Shown piece by piece: positions 5,091-41,202 of a stretch of DNA of 41,861 bases; position 1 is the stretch's first letter, and each line of letters begins with the position of its first letter. Made by a program: the position numbers and the translations under genes. The notes beneath the pieces are model-generated. The model worked only from the letters and a program-made list of their open reading frames with translations. It made no database searches and had not been told where the DNA came from. Source of the DNA: a virus (Duplodnaviria; Caudoviricetes); IMG/VR virus record IMGVR_UViG_3300043473_000010, positions 1-41,861 of that record, one strand, 5' to 3'.

Positions 5091-6170
5091 ATGCCACCGG
5101 AAGAACAAGCACCCCCATCAATAGCGGATTCTCTCAATGCTGCCATTGACACCGTCGAACAAGCAACTCCACCCACACCCGAACCTGCCGCCCCGGCGGA
5201 AGCGCCGAGTGGTGACCAGACGCCCGCGCCTGCGGCCCGCGAGGGGCGTGATTCGCGTGGGAGGTTTGTAGGTGGAAAGACGGCGGACACACCGGCTCAT
5301 CTGGGACGTCCTGACGCGCCAGACGCGGCGACCGCTCCCGCGAGTCCGCAAGCTCCGGCTGCGCCAGTGGATCCTGCAACGGGTCAGCCTCCGGCGCAAA
5401 CGCCCGCTGCCGACGTTGCTCCTGCGGCGTGGAAAGATGATGCCAAGGCGCAATGGGGGAAGTTGGATCCGTCCCTCAAAGCCGAAATAACACGCCGAGA
5501 GCGCGAAATTACCGTCGGTCTCCAACGGGCGGGCGATGCTCGCAAGTTTGGTGATTCCATCATGGGGGAGTTCGCCCCCTATGCGGAGATTCTGCAACAG
5601 GAAGGCGCGACGCCGCAGGCGGCAATTCGAGCACTGCTGGAAACGAGCTACACGCTCCGCTATGGCTCCCCCGAGCACAAGCAGGCGCTCTTCATGTCCC
5701 TCGCGCAGCAGTACGGCATCGATCTCAAAAGGCAGATCGACCCCGAAAAGGCGCGGTTGGAATGGCAGGCTGACTCCCGTACCATCAACGACGCCCGCGC
5801 CGGTACTCAGCAGCAGGTTCGGCTTCAGCAGGAAGTACAGACCGAGTTGGAGCAGTTTGTCAATGCTCCGGGGCACGAGTATTATGAGCGGGTGCGGCCT
5901 GCGATGGCCGGGTTGCTGACCAGTGGCGGTGCTGCGAATCTGCAGGACGCCTACGACCGCGCTTGTTGGGCGGACCCTCAAGTGCGGGTGGCTCTTCAGC
6001 AAGCGGCTGACATTGCCCGTGCTGCCTCGCAGTCCAAGAACCGCAATGCGCTCGCTGCGGTGAATGGGGCTCCCGGCGCTGTCGCGGTAACGCCGACGGC
6101 AGGAGCTGATCCAAGCAAGCTGAGGGAGTTCCTAGAAGCTCAATTCACGAGCCCTGGAGGTCGTGTATAA
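5091..6170 (+). CDS. Putative capsid scaffolding protein
   Basis: Lies between portal and capsid; Pro/Ala-rich N-terminus, helical core, LQDAYDRACWADP motif. Confidence 0.7.
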   Translation: MPPEEQAPPSIADSLNAAIDTVEQATPPTPEPAAPAEAPSGDQTPAPAAREGRDSRGRFVGGKTADTPAHLGRPDAPDAATAPASPQAPAAPVDPATGQPPAQTPAADVAPAAWKDDAKAQWGKLDPSLKAEITRREREITVGLQRAGDARKFGDSIMGEFAPYAEILQQEGATPQAAIRALLETSYTLRYGSPEHKQALFMSLAQQYGIDLKRQIDPEKARLEWQADSRTINDARAGTQQQVRLQQEVQTELEQFVNAPGHEYYERVRPAMAGLLTSGGAANLQDAYDRACWADPQVRVALQQAADIARAASQSKNRNALAAVNGAPGAVAVTPTAGADPSKLREFLEAQFTSPGGRV

Positions 6171-6303: not shown

Positions 6304-7287
6304 ATGGCATTCGCCAACAGTCAGGTCAGCGACATCATCGCCACGACGATCCAGTCGCGTAGCGGGATCATCGCCGACAACGTAACAAAGAACAACGCCC
6401 TTTTGCGGCGTCTGCAAGGCCGGGGGAACAGCAAGCCCTTCTCCGGCGGCAATGTGATCATGCAGGAGCTGTCGTTCGCACAGAACGGCAACGCCGGATG
6501 GTATTCCGGCTACGAAACGCTCCCGACCGGCGCACAGGACGTCATCAGCGCCTCCCAGTTCGACATCAAGCAAGCGGCTTGCCCGGTCACCATCAGCGGG
6601 CTGGAACTGCTGCAAAACTCCGGCAAGGAACAGATCATCGACCTGCTGGAAGGGCGCATGACCGTCGGCGAGGACACGATGCAGAACCTCGTGGCCCAAG
6701 GCGTCTACGCCAACGGAACGGGCTATGGCGGGAAGGAACTCACCGGTCTGGATGCCATGATCCCGGCCAACCCGCTGACCGGAACCTACGGCGGCATCGA
6801 TCGCGCCGCATGGCCCTTCTGGCAACCCCAGATCTACAAGGGCACGACGACCGGTGGCGCAGCCATCAGCGCCACGAACATCCAGGTCTACATGAACCGC
6901 CTGTGGGCGAAACTCGTGCGCGGCCAAAACCGCCCGGACCTGATCGTGATGGACAACCTGATGTGGGCGTTCTACATGCAGTCCCTTCAGGCCATCCAAC
7001 GCTTCAGCTCCAGCGACAGCGCCACGCTTGGCTTCCCGACCATCAAGTACATGGACGCGGATGTCGTGCTCGACGGCGGTCTGGGCGGTTTCGCACCGGC
7101 AACGGTCGCGTACTTCCTGGACACGAAGTATGCGTTCTTCCGGCCGCACCGGGACCGCAACTTCGTCGCCCTGGATCCGGGCAAGCGGTACTCCATCAAC
7201 CAGGATGCAGTCACGCAGATCCTGGCCTTCGCGGGCAACATGACTTGCAGCAACTCTTCGCTGCAAGGTCGGCTGGACAACACGTAA
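6304..7287 (+). CDS. Major capsid protein
   Basis: 327 aa, strong GGAGG RBS, strongly biased codons; SDIIATTIQSRS..IADNVTKNNALL N-terminus and GIDRA..PFW motif; position after scaffold. Confidence 0.9.
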   Translation: MAFANSQVSDIIATTIQSRSGIIADNVTKNNALLRRLQGRGNSKPFSGGNVIMQELSFAQNGNAGWYSGYETLPTGAQDVISASQFDIKQAACPVTISGLELLQNSGKEQIIDLLEGRMTVGEDTMQNLVAQGVYANGTGYGGKELTGLDAMIPANPLTGTYGGIDRAAWPFWQPQIYKGTTTGGAAISATNIQVYMNRLWAKLVRGQNRPDLIVMDNLMWAFYMQSLQAIQRFSSSDSATLGFPTIKYMDADVVLDGGLGGFAPATVAYFLDTKYAFFRPHRDRNFVALDPGKRYSINQDAVTQILAFAGNMTCSNSSLQGRLDNT

Positions 7288-22692: not shown

Positions 22693-23337
22693 ATGAAGTA
22701 CATCGTCTTCGGCCTGTGCGTCACACTTACCGGGTGCGCCACCACTCTTGATCCGAACTACGCACTCCAGTTGGAAAGCTACCGGCTGACGATCTCGGCG
22801 CAGCAGTCCGTGGAGATCGCCAAGGCGAATGCCGAAGCTGCCCGGTACGCTGCAATGGCGGCAATCGCAGAACGTGCGGATGCCCAGACCAAGAGCATGG
22901 CGTTGTTCGCATTGGCGCTGTCGGGGCGTGGTGAATCTGCTGCCCGCCCGGTGGAGGTTCAGCTTCCACGTATACCGGAGACGCAAGAGGACCGTGCGCT
23001 GAAGTGGGCCAGTGTGTTCGCCGGGCCAACGACAGCCTTGGTCACTTCCTACTTCGGCTACCAGTTGGGTAAGACGCAGAGCAACAATCAGGCGGCTACG
23101 ACACAGAGCTCCTACGCCGCACTGGTTTCCATGAAGCCCGTACAGCCCCCGTTTGTACCGACGACGCAGACCATCAACACCATCACGACCAACACCGACG
23201 CGTGGGTTACGAACCGTGACGGACTCGTGATTGTGGGAGGGGCACAACCAACGTCAGGCTCGCAGGACAATAGCACGCGGCCCGTCGTGGTTCCACCCGT
23301 CGTACCCATCGTACCCGTCGTGGTGACGAATCCCTAA
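22693..23337 (+). CDS. Lipoprotein
   Basis: Signal peptide II with lipobox LTGC; helical body; Pro/Val-rich tail. Confidence 0.75.
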   Translation: MKYIVFGLCVTLTGCATTLDPNYALQLESYRLTISAQQSVEIAKANAEAARYAAMAAIAERADAQTKSMALFALALSGRGESAARPVEVQLPRIPETQEDRALKWASVFAGPTTALVTSYFGYQLGKTQSNNQAATTQSSYAALVSMKPVQPPFVPTTQTINTITTNTDAWVTNRDGLVIVGGAQPTSGSQDNSTRPVVVPPVVPIVPVVVTNP

Positions 23338-23473
23338 GGTACTTCAGTAGGGCGTTGTTCTGCTCTATATTGGCCGCTATCTTCGGGGCGTGCCTGCGGA
23401 TTGTTCGCGCTATCAGTTCTGATAGTGTCAGGTGCGCGATACGCACCCAGTACAGCCGCTTGGCTTTCTTCAA
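23207..23473 (-). CDS. Small protein resembling the major capsid N-terminal arm
   Basis: TTG start with GGGAGG RBS; residues 18-46 align ungapped to capsid residues 9-37 with 14/29 identities. Confidence 0.6.
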   Translation of the reverse strand: MKKAKRLYWVRIAHLTLSELIARTIRRHAPKIAANIEQNNALLKYLRDSSPRRVRWVRRVEPRRAACYCPASLTLVVPLPQSRVRHGS

Positions 23474-23478
23474 AGCTC

Positions 23479-23543
23479 AGCCCTCCCCGGAAGCATTGCA
23501 CGACCGGGAAGGGCTTCGCCACTACAGCTCCCACCACAGGAGT
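23479..23543 (-). ncRNA. Putative trans-acting antisense sRNA / leader RNA
   Basis: Begins just after a sigma70-like promoter; 5' ACUCCUGUGGUGGGAG is complementary to the RBS motif of ten - strand genes; 3' GC-rich hairpin 23479-23515. Confidence 0.6.
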
Positions 23544-23550
23544 GAAACAA

Positions 23551-23579
23551 AGTATGGCATAATCCCCCGCAAAACGCAA
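23551..23579 (-). promoter_or_regulatory. sigma70-like promoter with extended -10
   Basis: Minus strand TTGCGT - 17 bp - CATACT, with TGn preceding the -10. Confidence 0.7.
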
Positions 23580-23676
23580 GCATTCGTTCCATTACAGCAT
23601 GACACCGAATAAAAGCGGGCTTTTGGGGCATTATTTTTGGGCCGGGTAGGGTAGGGTATGTACCGTTTGGCCGTGC

Positions 23677-23880: not shown

Positions 23881-24350
23881 TACCTGTCCTGGTTCACGTA
23901 GGCCGGGGTGGCATCACCCTCCGAAACCTTTGCCGCGATGTCTTCGCACTCTATCGCGTTGTGGTGCGCCCACGGCGGCTCAAACTCCTGGCAGTGTATC
24001 TTCGTGCGGCAGCGCCCACAGGTATAGAGGAAGCCTTCCTTGTGAGAACCCTCAAATACGAAGCCGACCCACCCGCTAGGTTTCACGTACTGGAGGAACT
24101 CTGCAAACGTGGGCTGCGGCACCGACTGGCGCACGGGATGTTTCTCTGCAAGCTCAATCATCTTGTCGATAAAGTGCCGCGCTTTGCGTAGGTCGTTCGA
24201 GCCGCCCTTGTCGCGATAGCGCATGATGTACTTGATAGTCTGCGCTTGGAAGTAGTCCCACCCGTGGATGACCACGAGGTTCCAGTGCTGAAACTCTGGC
24301 GGGCACTTCTTGTAGTGCGAACCGTCTTCTTGGTGAGTGTCAACATTCAC
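23880..24350 (-). CDS. DUF3310-like protein with C-terminal Cys/His motif
   Basis: Q..GSHY, IKYIMRYRDKGG..DLRKA..FIDKMIE. Confidence 0.8.
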   Translation of the reverse strand: MNVDTHQEDGSHYKKCPPEFQHWNLVVIHGWDYFQAQTIKYIMRYRDKGGSNDLRKARHFIDKMIELAEKHPVRQSVPQPTFAEFLQYVKPSGWVGFVFEGSHKEGFLYTCGRCRTKIHCQEFEPPWAHHNAIECEDIAAKVSEGDATPAYVNQDR

Positions 24351-25375
24351 TGATCTTCTCCAATGTGCCCGTGGTGAGGCTGACCAAATTCCCGGTCAGC
24401 TTTTTCTTTCAGATACCTCCGCTCCAACCATTCGTAACAGGCGACGCCCCAGTCGCAGCCGGGTATGGCCCCGATACAGCCTAGCGCCGCTTCCCATTCC
24501 CCCGCCTTGTGGAAGCCCCACGCGTCCCATATGCGGCACACGTACTCGGTGAAGTAACTGGTGATAAAGTGGTGGCTTTCCTCCGGGTTGGCTAGGAACA
24601 TCGCCAAGTCCTCATCGAACTCGTCAACAGTGCAGAGCATGGGGAGCGCCCGCATGTTGTTTGTCAGGTAACGGTCATCCGAATGCGGAACGAAGGACAG
24701 CTTTTCGTACTGCTCGTTCAAGTAAACGTGGGCGTTGAAGCTGACCTGGTGATACAGCCCCACGGGCACGCCAACTCTGCGAGCCATGTACTCCTGCAGG
24801 AATGCGAAGTGTACGGCATTGGCCCCGCACATTCCCCAGATGATGTCGTTGCTGCGGTTGGTCACCATCATGTCCAACCTGCCGTCGTTGACCTGAAACA
24901 TGGCGCTCAGGTTGCAGGGGATGTCTTTACGCCCCTCCTCCAGTGTGAGGTCCTTTGCCGGGTCCCACATCGTAACCACTGCTCGCCGCGACGTAGAGTC
25001 TTCTTGGAGCAGCCGCGCCGCAACGGTTAGCTGATCATAATCCCAGTGCTGCCGCCACCGATAGCCGTAGGCACCCTCCAGTATGACCCCGTCATCGCTG
25101 TACTCCTTCATACGGGGCAGAAATTTGGCGAGAAACTCTACGTCCTCCCGCCCGCCAAGCATCCACAGTGCCTCCATAAAGTGGAAGAATGGGTTGGCGT
25201 CGCGCATGGGGTTGAACAGTACCCGCTCCTGCGGATGAGTGTACGTGACGCATACCGGGGCGTTGAGCTTCAGGGCGGGGCCGTTGCGGGTATCGACCTT
25301 GACGCTACTGGTCTTCACACGCCAGAGCATATCGCACAGCGCACCGTTGACATTCCGTGCTATGACTACGTGCAT
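24347..25375 (-). CDS. Thymidylate synthase homolog, probable dUMP hydroxymethylase
   Basis: GAYGYRW, SRRAV, catalytic DIPCN, RSNDIIWG..GAN (Asn indicates dUMP specificity), NAHVY. Confidence 0.85.
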   Translation of the reverse strand: MHVVIARNVNGALCDMLWRVKTSSVKVDTRNGPALKLNAPVCVTYTHPQERVLFNPMRDANPFFHFMEALWMLGGREDVEFLAKFLPRMKEYSDDGVILEGAYGYRWRQHWDYDQLTVAARLLQEDSTSRRAVVTMWDPAKDLTLEEGRKDIPCNLSAMFQVNDGRLDMMVTNRSNDIIWGMCGANAVHFAFLQEYMARRVGVPVGLYHQVSFNAHVYLNEQYEKLSFVPHSDDRYLTNNMRALPMLCTVDEFDEDLAMFLANPEESHHFITSYFTEYVCRIWDAWGFHKAGEWEAALGCIGAIPGCDWGVACYEWLERRYLKEKADREFGQPHHGHIGEDQ

Positions 25376-25396
25376 CGCTTTCTCCTTGTGGTGGGA

Positions 25397-27340
25397 CTAC
25401 GACAGCTTACTGCCCTTCATCGGTGGGTCCGGATTGAGTGATATCTCGGGCCACGGCCCCAGTTTCCTACGAAAGATGGTGGTTTGGCCGGGGCCGGGTG
25501 TTTCTCCTAGGGTGTCATTCCATACGCGCACCTTTTCTAAGCCCGCGGCTTTCAAAGCCGCTGAAATTTGCATACTCCGCTGATGGTTCTTGTGTGAATT
25601 GTCAAGTTGCATGTACGCATAGACGTAGTCTACCGTGACGTAGGCGTAAGTTTCATAGTCCACCTTACTGCCCGCTGTCAGCGACTTGTACCGGGGCAGC
25701 GTACGAAGATCACGGGTGGCCCGCTGCACTGTTTCAGCAAACGGTGAAAGAGTATTCCGCGCTCTGACAACCAACTCCGCCTTGGCACCCGGCATTTCCC
25801 ACCACTCGTAACCGTCCCTGAACATCTGCACCGCTTCCGCAAGTATCTGGTCGCGGTTTTGTTCAATCAGGTCCACTTCCACAAGGTATCCGCAGCGTAC
25901 CGGCCAGAAACGTCGCCCACCCGTTTCATCCGTGAGGTAGGTGTCCTCGTTCGTGGTGCCGACAATCACGCACTGTCGTTTCTGGGTAACGCTGAGCCGA
26001 CCATAGGGTAGGCGAAAGGTATCCTCGGAGGAAGACAGCAGTGATTTAATGGTGGCGTGGTCGGACTTCCGCATGGCCCGTAACTCGTTGATGTCATATA
26101 TCCACGCCCCGGCCATGTTCTGCAGAAAGTCCTTACTGCCCACATCGTGGACAGTGCTTTCCCGGTAGTAATCACCCCCGATTGCGCGTAGCGCACGGCT
26201 CTTCCCGATGCCCTGCCCACCTTCAAGGATCAGCATATTGTCAGCCTTACAGCCGGGGCGCAGCGCTCGGGCCACTAGGGAAACGAGCCAGTTCTTACTC
26301 ACGGCCCGTAGATATTCTTTGTCTTCCGCCGAGTTGCAGTAGTTTTCGAAGAATGTTTCCACCCGCTTTTCACCGTCCCACTTAATATCCTCCAGATACT
26401 CGACCAGAGGGTTACGGCGAAAACGTGGATTTTGGAACACCTTGAGGAGCGCATCTTCTATGGTGCCTCTTTTGAATGATGGTTCCACCTCGTGCTGAAA
26501 CTTGCCCAAGATACGGATGGCGTCTCCGTCTTCCATTGGCTTGTTGTCTATGACGGGCTTCTGCATAAAGGCGTCGTACCACACGTTATCCTTGAACCAG
26601 TCGTGGACTTGCATGATGCGGGCGGCGTTTTCTGCGTTGGGGATTATCCGGTCAAACTGACCCTGTGTTCTAGCCCCGCTGCGGTAGGCAAGGCTCGCCA
26701 CGCCATCCCACAAATCGTGTCCGTTGTGCCGGGGCAGCTTGTCAAATCCGGCACCATTGGTAGCGACTAGCCAGTCATCAAACCCGACCTTATCGCGGCC
26801 CTCGGGCAGTGTCACCACCACTGGAATACGGCCCGCGTCACGCAACGCCAAGCAGAGTTCAGCAAGACCATGCTGTACCTGCGAATTCGTACGATAGTCG
26901 CCATCGAAGATGATCTCAACCGTAGCTCCCTCCGGTATAGCTTCCAGTATGTGCGGGCTGACAGTACGGTGAACCCGCGCATTCTTCGGCCCTTTCCAGT
27001 TATGACAGCCGCCGATACCTATCGCCGTCATCTTAAGGAACTTCCACGCGGCGGCAGCTTTCTTTTCACCCTCTATAATCCAATGCTTCACGCGTTCGTG
27101 GGCACCGCGCCAGTCAGCACCGGGTACGAAGTATGGATAGGGAGCCACCCCCGCAGCCTGAGTATACTTGCTCCCGTCCTCCGCCGGTTCGAACCTGCGG
27201 ATACGGAACATGTGAGGGTGGACTTCCCCAGTGGGTAGGAAGTAGGGGATTCTATATCCGAAATTGCCTTCTAGTGCAACACGCATGTCTTCGGGAACAA
27301 GACCGCTCCGAGCAAGATCGGATACAATCAATTCCATCAT
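25397..27340 (-). CDS. Primase-helicase (DUF3854/Toprim-like primase plus VapE/VirE-like ATPase)
   Basis: IIEGEKKA, GIGG, FDGD, GFDDW; PGCKAD.MLILEGGQGIGKS, FRLPYG, GTTN, DETGGRRFWP. Confidence 0.9.
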   Translation of the reverse strand: MMELIVSDLARSGLVPEDMRVALEGNFGYRIPYFLPTGEVHPHMFRIRRFEPAEDGSKYTQAAGVAPYPYFVPGADWRGAHERVKHWIIEGEKKAAAAWKFLKMTAIGIGGCHNWKGPKNARVHRTVSPHILEAIPEGATVEIIFDGDYRTNSQVQHGLAELCLALRDAGRIPVVVTLPEGRDKVGFDDWLVATNGAGFDKLPRHNGHDLWDGVASLAYRSGARTQGQFDRIIPNAENAARIMQVHDWFKDNVWYDAFMQKPVIDNKPMEDGDAIRILGKFQHEVEPSFKRGTIEDALLKVFQNPRFRRNPLVEYLEDIKWDGEKRVETFFENYCNSAEDKEYLRAVSKNWLVSLVARALRPGCKADNMLILEGGQGIGKSRALRAIGGDYYRESTVHDVGSKDFLQNMAGAWIYDINELRAMRKSDHATIKSLLSSSEDTFRLPYGRLSVTQKRQCVIVGTTNEDTYLTDETGGRRFWPVRCGYLVEVDLIEQNRDQILAEAVQMFRDGYEWWEMPGAKAELVVRARNTLSPFAETVQRATRDLRTLPRYKSLTAGSKVDYETYAYVTVDYVYAYMQLDNSHKNHQRSMQISAALKAAGLEKVRVWNDTLGETPGPGQTTIFRRKLGPWPEISLNPDPPMKGSKLS

Positions 27341-27378
27341 GTGGGGAACTCTTCAGAGGTGGGGTGGCACGGGTGTAA

Positions 27379-27407
27379 AGTTTACGCCCGTGGCCGGTAG
27401 CATACAA
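27379..27407 (-). promoter_or_regulatory. sigma70-like promoter for the primase/TS operon
   Basis: TTGTAT - 17 bp - TAAACT; the -10 lies in a near-perfect palindrome at 27368-27392. Confidence 0.6.
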
Positions 27408-27433
27408 CCCCCAACTCGTTCTAAGACCTTGTT

Positions 27434-28261
27434 TTAATTGCCATTTCTGTAGGACGTCGGAGTGTAGATCTGCTTGGGAGTACCTTCTCCATTCTTAGCC
27501 CGACTCCACTTGTCAAACTCGCAGAGACAGTTCTGCAGATTCTGCGCGTCCAACGGTTTGGGGAGGGACTGGATAACGGGGATAAGCTCCACGCTCAGTT
27601 CTACCAGTGTTTCCCGAAAGAGCTGCGGGGGCCACTTGAACTTCAGTGGTCTGTCCATCACACGGTTCAGCCCCCGTTGGCTTCCCGGCCCCGGAGTACA
27701 CCAAGTCCACCAGTCTTCAGCGTTGGCGAGTACGGGCTGTTGCTTCAGGTCCGCCACCATCTGCCCCGCCATGAATGACCCTACGCCTCGGACCGCTTGG
27801 AACATATTCGCAGCCTCGGATAGTGTTTCCTGGCCCGATAGGTGGACCTCCTCGTGTACCCGCGTCACCAACTCCACGACATATTCCAGCTTGTCCTGTT
27901 TGATACCGTTGGTGCTGACGATGTAGGCGGGGTTGAATACCCGGTTGCCACTGGAGCGCCAGATGTTCAGGTTGGCTAGAACAGCCGCAGGCTCCCACGG
28001 GGAACACGGCCCCAGAGTCTTCAACGTCCGTGGCTCGTTAATGTATCGTGCCAGTGCCACCCGCGCTTCGCAGTGATGAGCATACGGTCCCAACCAGTCA
28101 GCGATGAACTCCGACACGGGGTCCCACTCCCGGTACACGTTGCAGAAGCGATACGTGCGGAGGATGGTATCCGCTGTCCATGGGGGCGGTTCGCCCCGGC
28201 CACGGCGGAGGGCCATTTCCACCCGTTCCTTGATGAAGTAGCTCAGGTCTACGATGTTCAT
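27434..28261 (-). CDS. 5-hydroxymethyluracil DNA kinase (aGPT-Pplase1 family)
   Basis: PWTAD.IL..YRFCNVYRE.D, GVGSFMAGQMVADL, PGPGS.RGLNR, QNCLCEFDK signature motifs. Confidence 0.85.
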   Translation of the reverse strand: MNIVDLSYFIKERVEMALRRGRGEPPPWTADTILRTYRFCNVYREWDPVSEFIADWLGPYAHHCEARVALARYINEPRTLKTLGPCSPWEPAAVLANLNIWRSSGNRVFNPAYIVSTNGIKQDKLEYVVELVTRVHEEVHLSGQETLSEAANMFQAVRGVGSFMAGQMVADLKQQPVLANAEDWWTWCTPGPGSQRGLNRVMDRPLKFKWPPQLFRETLVELSVELIPVIQSLPKPLDAQNLQNCLCEFDKWSRAKNGEGTPKQIYTPTSYRNGN

Positions 28262-29073
28262 GGCTGACGCGGTCCACGGCTGATGCGCGGCAGACCTTCA
28301 GCACGTTCTGCGATGGGGGCCGGGTAGCAGTCCGTCACGAGCTTGCCCCAAGAGATGACTACTTCCTTGCGGGGCTTACCGTCAAACCATCCGGCCTTTG
28401 TTGCTTTCTCCACTAGCCGGGTGTAGTCGGGGTGCCATCTGTTGATCTGCTCGTGGCAGGCGTTGTGATATTCTAGCGTCCGGTAGGTAGAAGCGCCACC
28501 GGGGGACTGACTTTCCTTTTGGTCCTGCACCGTGAGGTACGTGACCCAGTTGGAGTAGCCCATCCGTATCAGCTGGATGGTCATTTCCAGGTCGTCTACC
28601 GGGCAGGTAAACTTCAGGTCATGCTCCTTGATGATATCGGCCCGTAGTCCCCACGCACGGGTGATGCGCCCGTTGAGGACCGTATCCTCCTGATTGTTGG
28701 CGAACAGCCTCGCCCCCACGCCAACATGAGCATACTCCTCCAACGCCGCCGCGACATCCATCAGCGTTTGGTGAAGCTGTGGCCGGGAGGCGGGCAGATA
28801 CTTGCGACTGCCAGGAATGCGGCAGGCCCAGTTTCCCAAGTCGTCGTCCAGCATTAGGACGCTCTTGTCGGGGCTGTTGTTGATGATCCACTGGCGCGTC
28901 GCGCCAATGCGTTCGGCCGGACAGGCTACGGCAGTATATCCGGCAGCTTGAAAGCCCGTAACCTCTTCAGGTGGGCAGACAAGTGTGATGGGAAATACGG
29001 ATACCGGGGCCAGAATATCTGCCGTTTTCTGAAGCCGTGGTCCGCGACCTTTGGTGGGAATGTAGATGTGCAT
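28258..29073 (-). CDS. GT-A fold glycosyltransferase (TAGT/GREB1/JGT-like)
   Basis: IYIPTKGR, RQWI, MLDDD (DxD), DDLE...QL...GY.N, QSPGG.S.YR, HP..T.LV.K. Confidence 0.8.
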   Translation of the reverse strand: MHIYIPTKGRGPRLQKTADILAPVSVFPITLVCPPEEVTGFQAAGYTAVACPAERIGATRQWIINNSPDKSVLMLDDDLGNWACRIPGSRKYLPASRPQLHQTLMDVAAALEEYAHVGVGARLFANNQEDTVLNGRITRAWGLRADIIKEHDLKFTCPVDDLEMTIQLIRMGYSNWVTYLTVQDQKESQSPGGASTYRTLEYHNACHEQINRWHPDYTRLVEKATKAGWFDGKPRKEVVISWGKLVTDCYPAPIAERAEGLPRISRGPRQP

Positions 29074-29142: not shown

Positions 29143-29808
29143 TTACGCTGCGGGGGTCGCTGCCGGGGCCGGTTCGTCGGCCTTGATAAACCCGTGGGCC
29201 AGATCGTACGCAAAGTCCGGACGCGTGAGACCTTCGGCAATCAGCTCGGTGAACGACTTGCCGACGGCGTACTTCGCGTACCGGGCGAACGCCGCGCAGC
29301 CTGCCCGCTTCGGGTTCGGGGCCACGTAGTTCAGCCGTTGGTCCAGCGTGTACGGTACGACGGCGGGCTTCGCCTTGCGCTTCTTCACCGGGGCCGGGAT
29401 GGGGTTGCCTTCGGCATCCAGCTTCGGCGGCTCTGCGGGCTTCGCTTCGCCAGTGGCGACCTTCTTGCGGGACTTCTTGGCGGGCGCTGCGGGGGCTGCG
29501 GTTCCGTCGGTGTTCACTGGGGCTTGTGCTTCCTGTGTCATTGTATACTCCGTTTGTGAGATGATATCCAGCTTGGCGCGGGCACGGTCGCTGATCTTCT
29601 TGTGACCAGCGATCCACACACGGGCAGCGTGAGCCGGGTTTTGGTTGGACAACACGAACTTCTTGGCGAACTGCTCCGACTTCATGGTGCAAACATCAAT
29701 GGTCGGACCTGCCATTGGATCGACGTAGGATACCCGGCCACCGAGCCGGTCTGTGACGATCACGAACTTCTTGTCTTCAACTCCACGGTGAACTTCAGCT
29801 TGTTGCAT
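29143..29808 (-). CDS. Hypothetical protein with Lys/Pro/Ala linker and C-terminal NPKR...DLAHGFI domain
   Basis: Own promoter and AGGAGG RBS; domain shared with 40765..41202. Confidence 0.8.
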   Translation of the reverse strand: MQQAEVHRGVEDKKFVIVTDRLGGRVSYVDPMAGPTIDVCTMKSEQFAKKFVLSNQNPAHAARVWIAGHKKISDRARAKLDIISQTEYTMTQEAQAPVNTDGTAAPAAPAKKSRKKVATGEAKPAEPPKLDAEGNPIPAPVKKRKAKPAVVPYTLDQRLNYVAPNPKRAGCAAFARYAKYAVGKSFTELIAEGLTRPDFAYDLAHGFIKADEPAPAATPAA

Positions 29809-31975: not shown

Positions 31976-32640
31976 GGGCCTCCCCGGTTGCGCGAGTAGG
32001 AGCACCATTTGCAGTGAGCACCGGGCCGTGCCTTGAACTCTGCATCCATAGCCATTTCGTTGGCGATGTTCTCCCACCGCTTCAGCACATGCTGACTCGC
32101 AGCCTTGTTCATGGTGCGTTGGAGCTTGGCCCCCGGCCCAATGTCAAGATACCAATTTTCAGTCTTGGATACCTTCGCCTCCGGGTAGATAAGGAACGAC
32201 ACGGCGGCGTAGAGGTCCAACTGATTGGCGTGGGTGGCGCTCACCTTGCCGGTCTTGTAGTCAATCGTTTGGACCGTGTACTCCGGCACATCGTAATACT
32301 GGACGTCAAACACCATCCGCGCCCATGCGTCCTTCGCGAAGAAGTCTGTCGGTTGCCAGAGCGTGTTGAAGGCCACCTGTAGCTCCAGCTTGGGGCTCTT
32401 TTCCCGCAGCGCCATCAACTGTGGGCGGAACAACTCTAACTGAGGCGCACCGGGGGCAGGTTCGGGCAACTCCAGATGCCCCGGCCCGACGAAGTTCTCC
32501 AGAACGCTGTGCCAGTAGGTTCCGCGCTCGGCCGCTGCCCCCGGTGGATCGGGTATCTTGTCGATCACCTTGAACTTCACCTTTTGCGGGCACTGCTGAT
32601 ATGCGCTGAGGCGACTGTACGACCATTGCGTTATTCCCAT
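31960..32640 (-). CDS. PD-(D/E)XK (RecB/Cas4-like) exonuclease
   Basis: WSYSRL..Y.QCP, RGT..H, IDYKTG, QL.LY, C-terminal C.WC...C. Confidence 0.88.
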   Translation of the reverse strand: MGITQWSYSRLSAYQQCPQKVKFKVIDKIPDPPGAAAERGTYWHSVLENFVGPGHLELPEPAPGAPQLELFRPQLMALREKSPKLELQVAFNTLWQPTDFFAKDAWARMVFDVQYYDVPEYTVQTIDYKTGKVSATHANQLDLYAAVSFLIYPEAKVSKTENWYLDIGPGAKLQRTMNKAASQHVLKRWENIANEMAMDAEFKARPGAHCKWCSYSRNRGGPCSSG

Positions 32641-32987
32641 CTTTCTCTCCAAAGTCGTTGGGCTATCTCTTCCGTATAGCAGCTACGGAGTCTGACTAAT
32701 GACATCTGCTTACGCCGCTCATGCGAGCCATTATTCGCCCATGCGGATTGAAGATTACAGCGATGCTGTCCACGCGCCACACGATCACGCGCATTGTCTT
32801 TATCGGTGCCGCAATACAGATGCTCCGGGTTCACACACGCCTTGTTATCACATCTGTGCAGGATGTGCGCTCCCTGTGGAATGGGGCCGTAGAAGTTCGT
32901 GTAGGCTTCGCGGTGCGCGTACCCTCGTGCGTGAGTGTACCCGTACCCATGCTTGCCGATCTTCATGTCGGTAATGATGCAAGTCAT
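32631..32987 (-). CDS. HNH endonuclease
   Basis: AHR.AY...GPIP....LHRCDNKACVNPEHL..GT..DN. Confidence 0.9.
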   Translation of the reverse strand: MTCIITDMKIGKHGYGYTHARGYAHREAYTNFYGPIPQGAHILHRCDNKACVNPEHLYCGTDKDNARDRVARGQHRCNLQSAWANNGSHERRKQMSLVRLRSCYTEEIAQRLWRERWE

Positions 32988-36427: not shown

Positions 36428-36743
36428 GGAACTCCTCTGTGGTGGGAAACGTAAGTGCTGAACTTCTACGGCCCTTGCGCTGCGCGTCACGTATATTCTG
36501 TAGAGCCGTCCCCAGAAACAAGTGGGCCGGGTTGCAGCACAGACGATTATCGCAGGTGTGGCAGACATACATACCCGTGGGGATGACACCGTTTGTCAAC
36601 GCCCACGCTGTTCTGTGGGCGCTAAACGATTTGGACCCATAGTTGAATCGCCCATACCCGCGACCGTTCTGTCTTCCAAGCCAAGGCCAACATTCGGTGT
36701 CATTGCCTGAGCTGACCTTGGACCAGAGAAGGGCGGGTTGCAT
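36306..36743 (-). CDS. HNH endonuclease
   Basis: [35 protein letters not shown]. Confidence 0.9.
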
Positions 36744-40764: not shown

Positions 40765-41202
40765 TTACGCCTTGGCGGTTTCGGTGGTCGCCGGGGCCGG
40801 GGCCGTGGCAACCGGGTTCAGCGTAATAAACCCGTGGGCCAAATCCCACGCAATGTTGGCCGTCAGCAAGGCAAATTTTCCCTTGTGCCCGGCCTTGGCG
40901 GAATTTTCCATGCACGCGGCCAAGGTCTGGCCGGGCACGTAAAATCCAAACGCGGTATGCGCCGCACAGCCCGCGCGTTTCGGGTTGGGCACAACGGTCG
41001 CCACGGTCTGTTGCAGGTGGAAATTCGCCCGCGTAACGTAGCGCGGCGCTTTCGCCGGGGCCACGGCATTCGCCGCAACCTGCGCGGGCGTAATCGCCGT
41101 GGTTTTGTTTTCGGCCGGGGCCGGGGCCGCTTGCGCGGGCGTGGTCACAACGGGCGTGCTAGGCGCTTGCGCGGCCTTTTTCGTGCTGTTACGCTTTGCC
41201 AT
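40765..41202 (-). CDS. First gene of the - arm; Ala/Pro/Thr-rich protein with NPKR...WDLAHGFI domain
   Basis: GGAG RBS, own promoter and terminator; paralogous to the C-terminus of 29143..29808. Confidence 0.8.
   Translation of the reverse strand: MAKRNSTKKAAQAPSTPVVTTPAQAAPAPAENKTTAITPAQVAANAVAPAKAPRYVTRANFHLQQTVATVVPNPKRAGCAAHTAFGFYVPGQTLAACMENSAKAGHKGKFALLTANIAWDLAHGFITLNPVATAPAPATTETAKA

Follow-up and report, generated by a model that had tools for sequence, protein, structure and literature searches.

A leaderless mini-gene resembling the capsid N-terminal arm in an exchangeable slot of a phage genome, and its possible role as a decoy for capsid sensors

The window, by which we mean the whole stretch of 41,861 nucleotides analysed here (IMG/VR record IMGVR_UViG_3300043473_000010), is a complete, circularly assembled phage genome with a 127-nt terminal repeat. 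Its plus-strand block carries the genes for the terminase, the portal, a presumed scaffold (5091-6170), the tail and the phrog_9953 capsid, and its minus-strand block carries those for DNA polymerase A, a helicase, a primase, a thymidylate-synthase-like protein, a 5-hmdU kinase domain and a glycosyltransferase. These blocks run towards each other and meet at about 23.3-23.7 kb, the site of the mini-ORF described here (Table 1). The best-matching sequencing runs are soil metagenomes, and no RNA run is among the listed runs that match the window. Positions 23329-23473 are covered by contigs or reads in all four runs compared (X2-X5), with zero differences in X2, X3 and X5 and six differences in X4; this part of the mini-ORF is therefore not an assembly artefact.

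Elsewhere on the minus strand, the thymidylate-synthase-like, 5-hmdU kinase-domain and TET-associated glycosyltransferase genes (24347-29073) form a likely DNA hypermodification set, and two unannotated genes (29143-29808 and 40765-41202) have in common a C-terminal domain of about 65 residues (E 5e-9). Two HNH-like genes (32631-32987 and about 36450-36660) are a paralogous pair. No further virion-protein fragment was found in the window; apart from the match described here, internal comparison gave two paralogous pairs and nothing else.

Table 1. Features of the mini-ORF locus and the genes it is compared with; positions refer to the window unless another locus is named.
Feature	Position	Strand	Remarks
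Major capsid gene	6304..7287	+	phrog_9953 major head protein, E 1e-106; HK97 fold
Predicted lipoprotein gene	22693..23337	+	flanks the slot; final gene of the plus-strand block
Mini-ORF	23207..23473	-	88 codons from a TTG; a basic N-terminus precedes the capsid-arm-like core and the read-through tail
Capsid N-arm-like segment, codons 16-48	23330..23428	-	profile matches
Arg-rich tail, codons 47-88	23207..23335	-	antisense to the lipoprotein 3' end
11-bp hairpin with GGGAGG, then weak U-tract	23480..23514	-	identical in G001 (L001)
Putative ~78-nt sRNA or leader RNA	23472..23549	-	inferred; 100% conserved in L001
Predicted sigma-70-type promoter, TTGCGT-17-CATACT	23551..23579	-	1 of 6 sites in the genome
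Unrelated slot ORF, 97 codons	L001 6515-6808	-	in G001; no PHROG match

The mini-ORF opens with a short, Lys/Arg-rich N-terminus, has no stop codon of its own and reads through into the convergent lipoprotein gene, where its Arg-rich tail is probably passive read-through. The frame is open across the entire slot, and codons 1-46 have a codon adaptation of 0.67 and a GC3 of 0.70, the best of the slot's six frames and like those of other small genes; the tail has a codon adaptation of 0.51. Codon 10, a GTG in register with the ATG of the capsid gene, reads GTA in a variant read from X4, which leaves the TTG as the only plausible start. The mini-ORF has no Pfam match, and its region has no Rfam or tRNA match.

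An earlier sequence-only reading of this DNA had aligned residues 18-46 of the mini-ORF, without gaps, to residues 9-37 of the major capsid protein (encoded at 6328-6414), with 14 of 29 residues identical, and we reproduced this alignment. As that reading also observed, the mini-ORF lies 17 kb from the capsid gene on the opposite strand, and the similarity stops at codons 46-48, where the mini-ORF starts to overlap the 3' end of the lipoprotein gene. The two DNA segments agree at 46 of 87 positions, with different codons at 10 of the 14 identical residues. Antisense action on the capsid mRNA was ruled out by this identity of 53% and a longest exact run of 13 nt, and recent DNA duplication by the saturated synonymous sites.

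Taken alone, the pairwise match could be luck. Its tblastn E value within the window is 0.001, and its score was equalled by one shuffled capsid in 300 when the shuffling was global and by two in 300 when it was local; when all 35 main proteins were shuffled, 2 of 20 sets gave an equally strong match. The genome-wide p is thus about 0.1, which is only suggestive and leaves room for a chance resemblance of non-coding DNA. Profiles gave a clearer answer. A capsid-arm HMM built from 55 distinct arms and searched against the window and 117 loci scored the mini-ORF at 25.8 bits (E 1.6e-5), with the next non-capsid match at 10.3, and the mini-ORF also matched positions 4-41 of the 329 in phrog_9953 (E 0.006). 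When 25 forward and 25 reversed capsid-window HMMs were run blind over 1.15 Mb (the window plus 31 related records, a few in part), the mini-ORF was the top match outside capsid genes, at 21.6 bits, behind one cut capsid end, and no other capsid piece was found within it. The best reversed control in this test reached 17.9 bits, and so small a margin counts in favor of chance. An HMM of 10 stand-alone arms, from which the mini-ORF, three of its relatives (P0003, P0004 and P0016) and all capsids were excluded, scored the mini-ORF at 49.1 bits, above all 34 capsid-type matches (maximum 48.4; the phage's own capsid 43.6) and against 11.3 for the reversed control, although this profile is not fully independent, its members having been retrieved with an alignment that included the mini-ORF. 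Chance would have to account for these two arm-profile scores, for the match to P0003 in a library of 1.84 billion proteins (see below) and for a match that fills the intergenic slot in register with the capsid start. The profile results largely refute it, and we consider it very improbable. They remove most of the pairwise doubt and, as far as sequence comparison goes, settle the homology of the mini-ORF to the capsid-family N-arm.

Homology to the family does not single out the phage's own capsid as the source. Over 33 positions the mini-ORF shares 14 identities with its own arm, 14 with a distant capsid fragment (P0027), 12 with the capsid of another phage (L206), at most 15 with the 55 close capsid arms and 16-17 with stand-alone mimics. 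Of the earlier proposal that the gene resembles the phage's own capsid, the kinship with the capsid-family arm is the part that stands; a preference for the phage's own copy is not evident from these counts. Column by column, the mini-ORF goes with the stand-alones where these differ from the 55 close capsid arms: it has R17, has lost the invariant D25 and carries E-Q in place of T28-K29. At position 10, all 55 capsids have D and 10 of 15 stand-alones, including the mini-ORF, have E, in a capsid set that is biased to close relatives and with E10 also present in one more distant capsid fragment. The AlphaFold model of the capsid resembles HK97-fold capsids (best 6j3q, E 6.5e-8); its pLDDT is below 50 at residues 1-60, so the contacts of the arm are unreadable in it.

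The sequence-only reading had asked for homologous stand-alone ORFs, and these exist. A phmmer search with residues 10-51 against 1.84 billion representatives returned two matches, P0003 and P0002, the latter a HEAT-like repeat protein that we rejected as spurious. P0003, the best single relative (17/33 over the compared positions; 53% identity and E 9e-5 in the phmmer search), is a 93-residue protein in which a Tat-like leader, matching PF10518 at E 0.006 and below the curated cut-off, is followed by the same arm. An iterated search gathered 146 small proteins, of which 120 are listed. Among those 120, at least 13 score 17-39 bits on the capsid-arm HMM, most of them behind a Tat-like leader; a fourteenth, P0027, was left out as a probable truncated capsid. 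Compared with PHROGs at E 0.05, at least 11 of the 120 listed match the phrog_9953 arm, at least 2 match phrog_9953 positions 98-138 (the spine-helix region) and at least 5 match four other major-head families. One class member is predicted to be helical over the arm.

Leader scans turned up 83 loci with 94 leader ORFs. We searched 82 distinct tails against the 1,223 long frames of these loci. Nine tails (from 8 loci) matched a long ORF in their own locus, and none of the 82 reversed tails did. In L206, a 40.7-kb phage, the tail is 22/33 (67%) identical to the phage's own phrog_9953 capsid, whose gene is found on the opposite strand at a distance of 1.3 kb (pS 0.58, pN 0.25). Among the own-locus matches only this target was identified by family; the remaining targets we tentatively take, from their sequences, to be capsid or portal proteins. 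Another member, P0010, shares 21/33 with its own capsid and 12/33 with the capsid of the window. Judging from these matches, the Tat-like-leader class is self-derived from the proteins of its carriers. The Tat-like-leader mini-proteins (L206-L288, P0003-P0122) are a large family whose tails copy capsid pieces of several families, and some phages (L265, L221, L215) carry two or three such genes.

From the shared arm and its shared departures we infer that the mini-ORF is a leaderless relative of these proteins, and a leader HMM of 97 proteins found no match in the window at 12 bits. As a leaderless member, it would indicate that a phage can retain the arm segment after or without acquisition of a leader. 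A homologue search with the full 88 residues gave no candidate. In a tblastn search of 50,697 phage records, the arm part matched two capsid genes only (E 0.2-0.3), and the same kind of search with P0003 and with an arm-like ORF of the related phage G002 found no match. The ESM Atlas had no usable match for the mini-ORF; the first match of P0003 there was to an unnamed viral cluster (0.91), which we treat as no more than a lead. Peptide scans of IMG/VR gave 39 and 95 pattern matches, none confirmed, and a degenerate arm pattern gave one match, out of frame with every arm-like ORF listed.

Among 49 related records, 37 contain a capsid arm and only 2, G002 and G013, a second arm-like match. The G002 ORF, of 49 residues, starts Lys/Arg-rich, lies directly before the terminase gene and adjoins a Tat-leader ORF; the G013 ORF has 57 residues. 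They score 19.2 and 16.8 bits on the stand-alone-arm HMM (reversed control 11.3), but on the capsid-only window profiles, where the reversed control stands at 17.9, they reach below 10 and 17.6 bits, which is at or below noise, and we regard both as weak candidates for leaderless arm ORFs. In G002 (L139 ~240-470 and 597-746), the Tat-leader ORF contains a short capsid E-loop-like motif and is followed by the leaderless arm-like ORF. In G007 (L140 478-2000), an ORF of about 290 residues interrupts the capsid gene after about 87 codons, suggesting an intron; this ORF presumably resembles a homing endonuclease.

The closest relative of the window, G001 (locus L001), shows that the slot is exchangeable. 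It is about 84% identical in nucleotide sequence over 70% of the window, its capsid is identical at 326 of 327 residues, and it keeps both the lipoprotein gene and a 102-nt block identical to 23472-23573. Where the window has TTG, G001 has TTC, and from exactly that point its slot is filled by an unrelated ORF, which is preceded by a phage-type ribosome-binding site of its own. Like the mini-ORF, and in the frame that the mini-ORF uses, this ORF runs antisense into the lipoprotein gene. The mini-ORF allele was not seen at this slot in a second phage in IMG/VR. Because the slot was replaced in a phage with a near-identical capsid, the mini-gene is dispensable and not an essential assembly factor.

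This exchange also bears on the earlier suggestion that the mini-ORF product times scaffold and capsid assembly. A product that regulates or chaperones the assembly of the phage's own capsid, through timing or scaffold release, could be co-expressed with the capsid, whose gene has upstream a promoter like the one predicted here, and N-arms do change conformation during maturation in the portions of PMC9965877 available to us. The mini-ORF is absent from G001, however, and a second arm-like match occurs in only 2 of the 37 capsid-bearing records. The arm is also nearly invariant among capsids, whereas the copy is more than half diverged. We therefore disfavor this role as improbable.

Upstream of the mini-ORF, the GGGAGG Shine-Dalgarno motif (23482-23487) precedes the TTG by 8 nt and forms part of the 3' arm of the hairpin, in which the sequence-only reading had already placed it. 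The hairpin pairs fully on the minus strand only (G-U versus C-A). That reading took this arrangement as a sign of tight control of the gene, a view that G001 corrects: the same 102-nt block precedes a different gene there, so the motif and the hairpin are not evidence of control specific to the mini-gene. We read the conserved block 23472-23579 instead as a putative small RNA with its own predicted promoter. The strong ribosome-binding site of the G001 slot ORF suggests minus-strand transcription across the hairpin. The 5' seed of the small RNA (23530-23542) is complementary to a ribosome-binding motif, CACCAC..AGGAG, that precedes at least 8 minus-strand genes, and when 49 start regions were paired with the seed, minus-strand genes made up 11 of the 12 most stable duplexes. 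If real, this RNA could silence many early genes at once. In L001 the -10 element of the predicted promoter is identical and the -35 element differs by one base; the pattern that finds the promoter was written after seeing the site, and a standard consensus scan did not find it. Folding of the whole region was no better than that of shuffles (z -0.9 and -0.4). A hairpin scan of metagenomes gave one match, inside an unrelated gene, which we took as chance. Two further elements are at least partly conserved in L001: a long imperfect hairpin predicted at 23580-23632 (minus strand), upstream of and overlapping the promoter and conserved in part, and a ribosome-binding motif at 23543-23562 (plus strand), followed 11 nt on by a Met-Ala-stop mini-frame.

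Variation offers a limited view of selection on the mini-ORF. Compared with its own capsid, the arm has a pS of 0.72 and a pN of 0.39, and four other pairs show the same pattern, although the segment was selected for its amino-acid similarity, which biases this contrast. In the X4 variant read, three of the four changes listed in the mini-ORF frame are synonymous and the fourth is a conservative R27K, evidence that amounts to four changes in one 151-nt record at a depth of 2.8. Two unlisted differences lie near the ends of this read, so that the TTG is not confirmed there. In the overlap, both X4 variants leave the lipoprotein sequence unchanged and alter the product of the mini-ORF, a pattern in favor of the lipoprotein frame. 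The sequence-only reading had held that a lack of purifying selection would count against a functional gene; the scant variation data fit selection on the mini-ORF frame.

These observations have to be set against the possibility that the mini-ORF is a relic, the remnant of an earlier mimic gene without its leader, or a piece of a foreign capsid gene; recombination would have placed it in the slot behind the small RNA, and its translation would be lacking or would have ceased. In favor of this are the missing leader, a TTG inside the U-tract of the small RNA, a Shine-Dalgarno motif common to a phage with another gene there, the lack of an own stop codon and an allele not found in another phage species. 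Against it are a frame open across the slot with the best codon usage of six and mostly synonymous changes among the listed variants. Nor does a relic sit well with the top score of everything scanned on the stand-alone profile, or with two other possible leaderless arm ORFs in relatives. We regard a relic as unlikely but as an alternative to be taken seriously. The homology we take as real; that the mini-ORF is a real accessory gene is, in our judgment, probable.

Our preferred reading, to which we assign a probability of roughly 0.4, is that the product is a mimic peptide, which would attach to a capsid-sensing immune protein of the host and leave it inactive. The mini-ORF, a diverged capsid N-arm copy in a swappable accessory slot, would be transcribed from the predicted promoter when transcription continues past the end of the small RNA. 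Because the Shine-Dalgarno motif and the TTG lie in the 3' end of that RNA, the product would be made at a low level, with translation from the TTG once the hairpin opens. Only residues ~15-48, folded as helices, would matter, and the target would be the host's capsid sensor. The dispensability of the gene, its rapid divergence, the lost invariant Asp and the sampling of capsid regions and families across the class agree better with an arms race against sensors of conserved virion proteins than with interference in assembly. Against it stand the sequestered Shine-Dalgarno motif, in an element conserved without the mini-gene, and the lack of both a leader and an own stop codon.

The precedents of capsid sensing, on which the sequence-only reading had leaned, point in two directions. 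Major capsid proteins are established immune triggers, as the parts of PMC9712102 and bioRxiv 10.64898/2026.01.04.697583 available to us describe. However, in the excerpts of PMC9712102, CapRel SJ46 makes contact with the folded P- and A-domains but does not touch the arm, and Lit is switched on, not inhibited, by Gol as an isolated peptide. A fragment on its own could thus set off a sensor and would not automatically block it.

The same fragment could also act on assembly, as a poison directed at co- or superinfecting phages of the same capsid family in which the free arm titrates scaffold or caps procapsids. In P22, the N-arm binds scaffold through the acidic residues D14, E15 and E18 (PMC9965877, in part), and the excerpts of PMC10884400 describe a phage-encoded blocker of virion assembly, Tab; such a target would also suit the finding that the mini-ORF resembles other arms of the family as much as that of its own capsid. 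But the phage's own assembly would suffer too, the invariant acidic D25 is lost, and the fragment sits behind an export-type leader in most class members. Moreover, the 43 ORFs scanned in the window (small ORFs partly included) contain no integrase or repressor, so there may be no lysogen to protect. We find this reading doubtful. Broader, and in our view similarly doubtful, is the idea that tailed phages repeatedly spin off short copies of capsid epitopes, with or without a leader, that jam capsid sensing, here coupled to a small RNA that silences early genes. If so, one transcript would switch the infection program and shield the capsid as its making starts.

If the decoy reading is true, self-mimic genes would be a new counter-defense design, capsid proteins being conserved immunity triggers that phages cannot easily mutate. 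The copied segments would then mark epitopes read by unknown sensors and could be used as pull-down baits; if the peptides instead poison assembly, they would be natural, sequence-defined inhibitors of capsid nucleation. The mini-ORF belongs to a class that is apparently undescribed. No phage-encoded capsid-fragment decoy is described in the passages on capsid-triggered immunity cited here, and no phage genes derived from capsid fragments are described in the literature searched, which consisted of abstract openings, mostly open-access, and of bioRxiv 10.64898/2026.10.24.761521 searched by terms.

Among known systems, CapRel SJ46 with Gp57, Lit with Gol, Avs7 and Dsr1 provide the rationale for a decoy, since in the available passages they recognize capsids inside the cell; they are host sensors, unlike the mini-ORF. 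Tab, the tail assembly blocker of a Pseudomonas prophage, is like the mini-ORF a small phage accessory, and it acts on virion assembly, but it targets tail assembly, is prophage-expressed, has an anti-Tab and is not described as a copy of a virion protein in the portions of PMC10884400 that we cite. With the N-arm of the HK97-fold capsid (phrog_9953), the mini-ORF shares sequence homology over positions ~4-41. The corresponding arm of P22 gp5 is helical in the procapsid (PMC9965877, in part), as is predicted for the stand-alone member mentioned above. The mini-ORF differs from the phrog_9953 capsid in being free-standing, without the fold of about 325 residues that comprises the E-loop, spine helix, P- and A-domains, and from close capsids in lacking D25, T28 and K29 and in its place far from the capsid gene on the other strand. 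Its nearest counterparts are the Tat-leader mini-proteins, which carry the same arm segment with the same departures from the capsid consensus; unlike them, it is leaderless, lies behind a putative small RNA and reads into a convergent gene.
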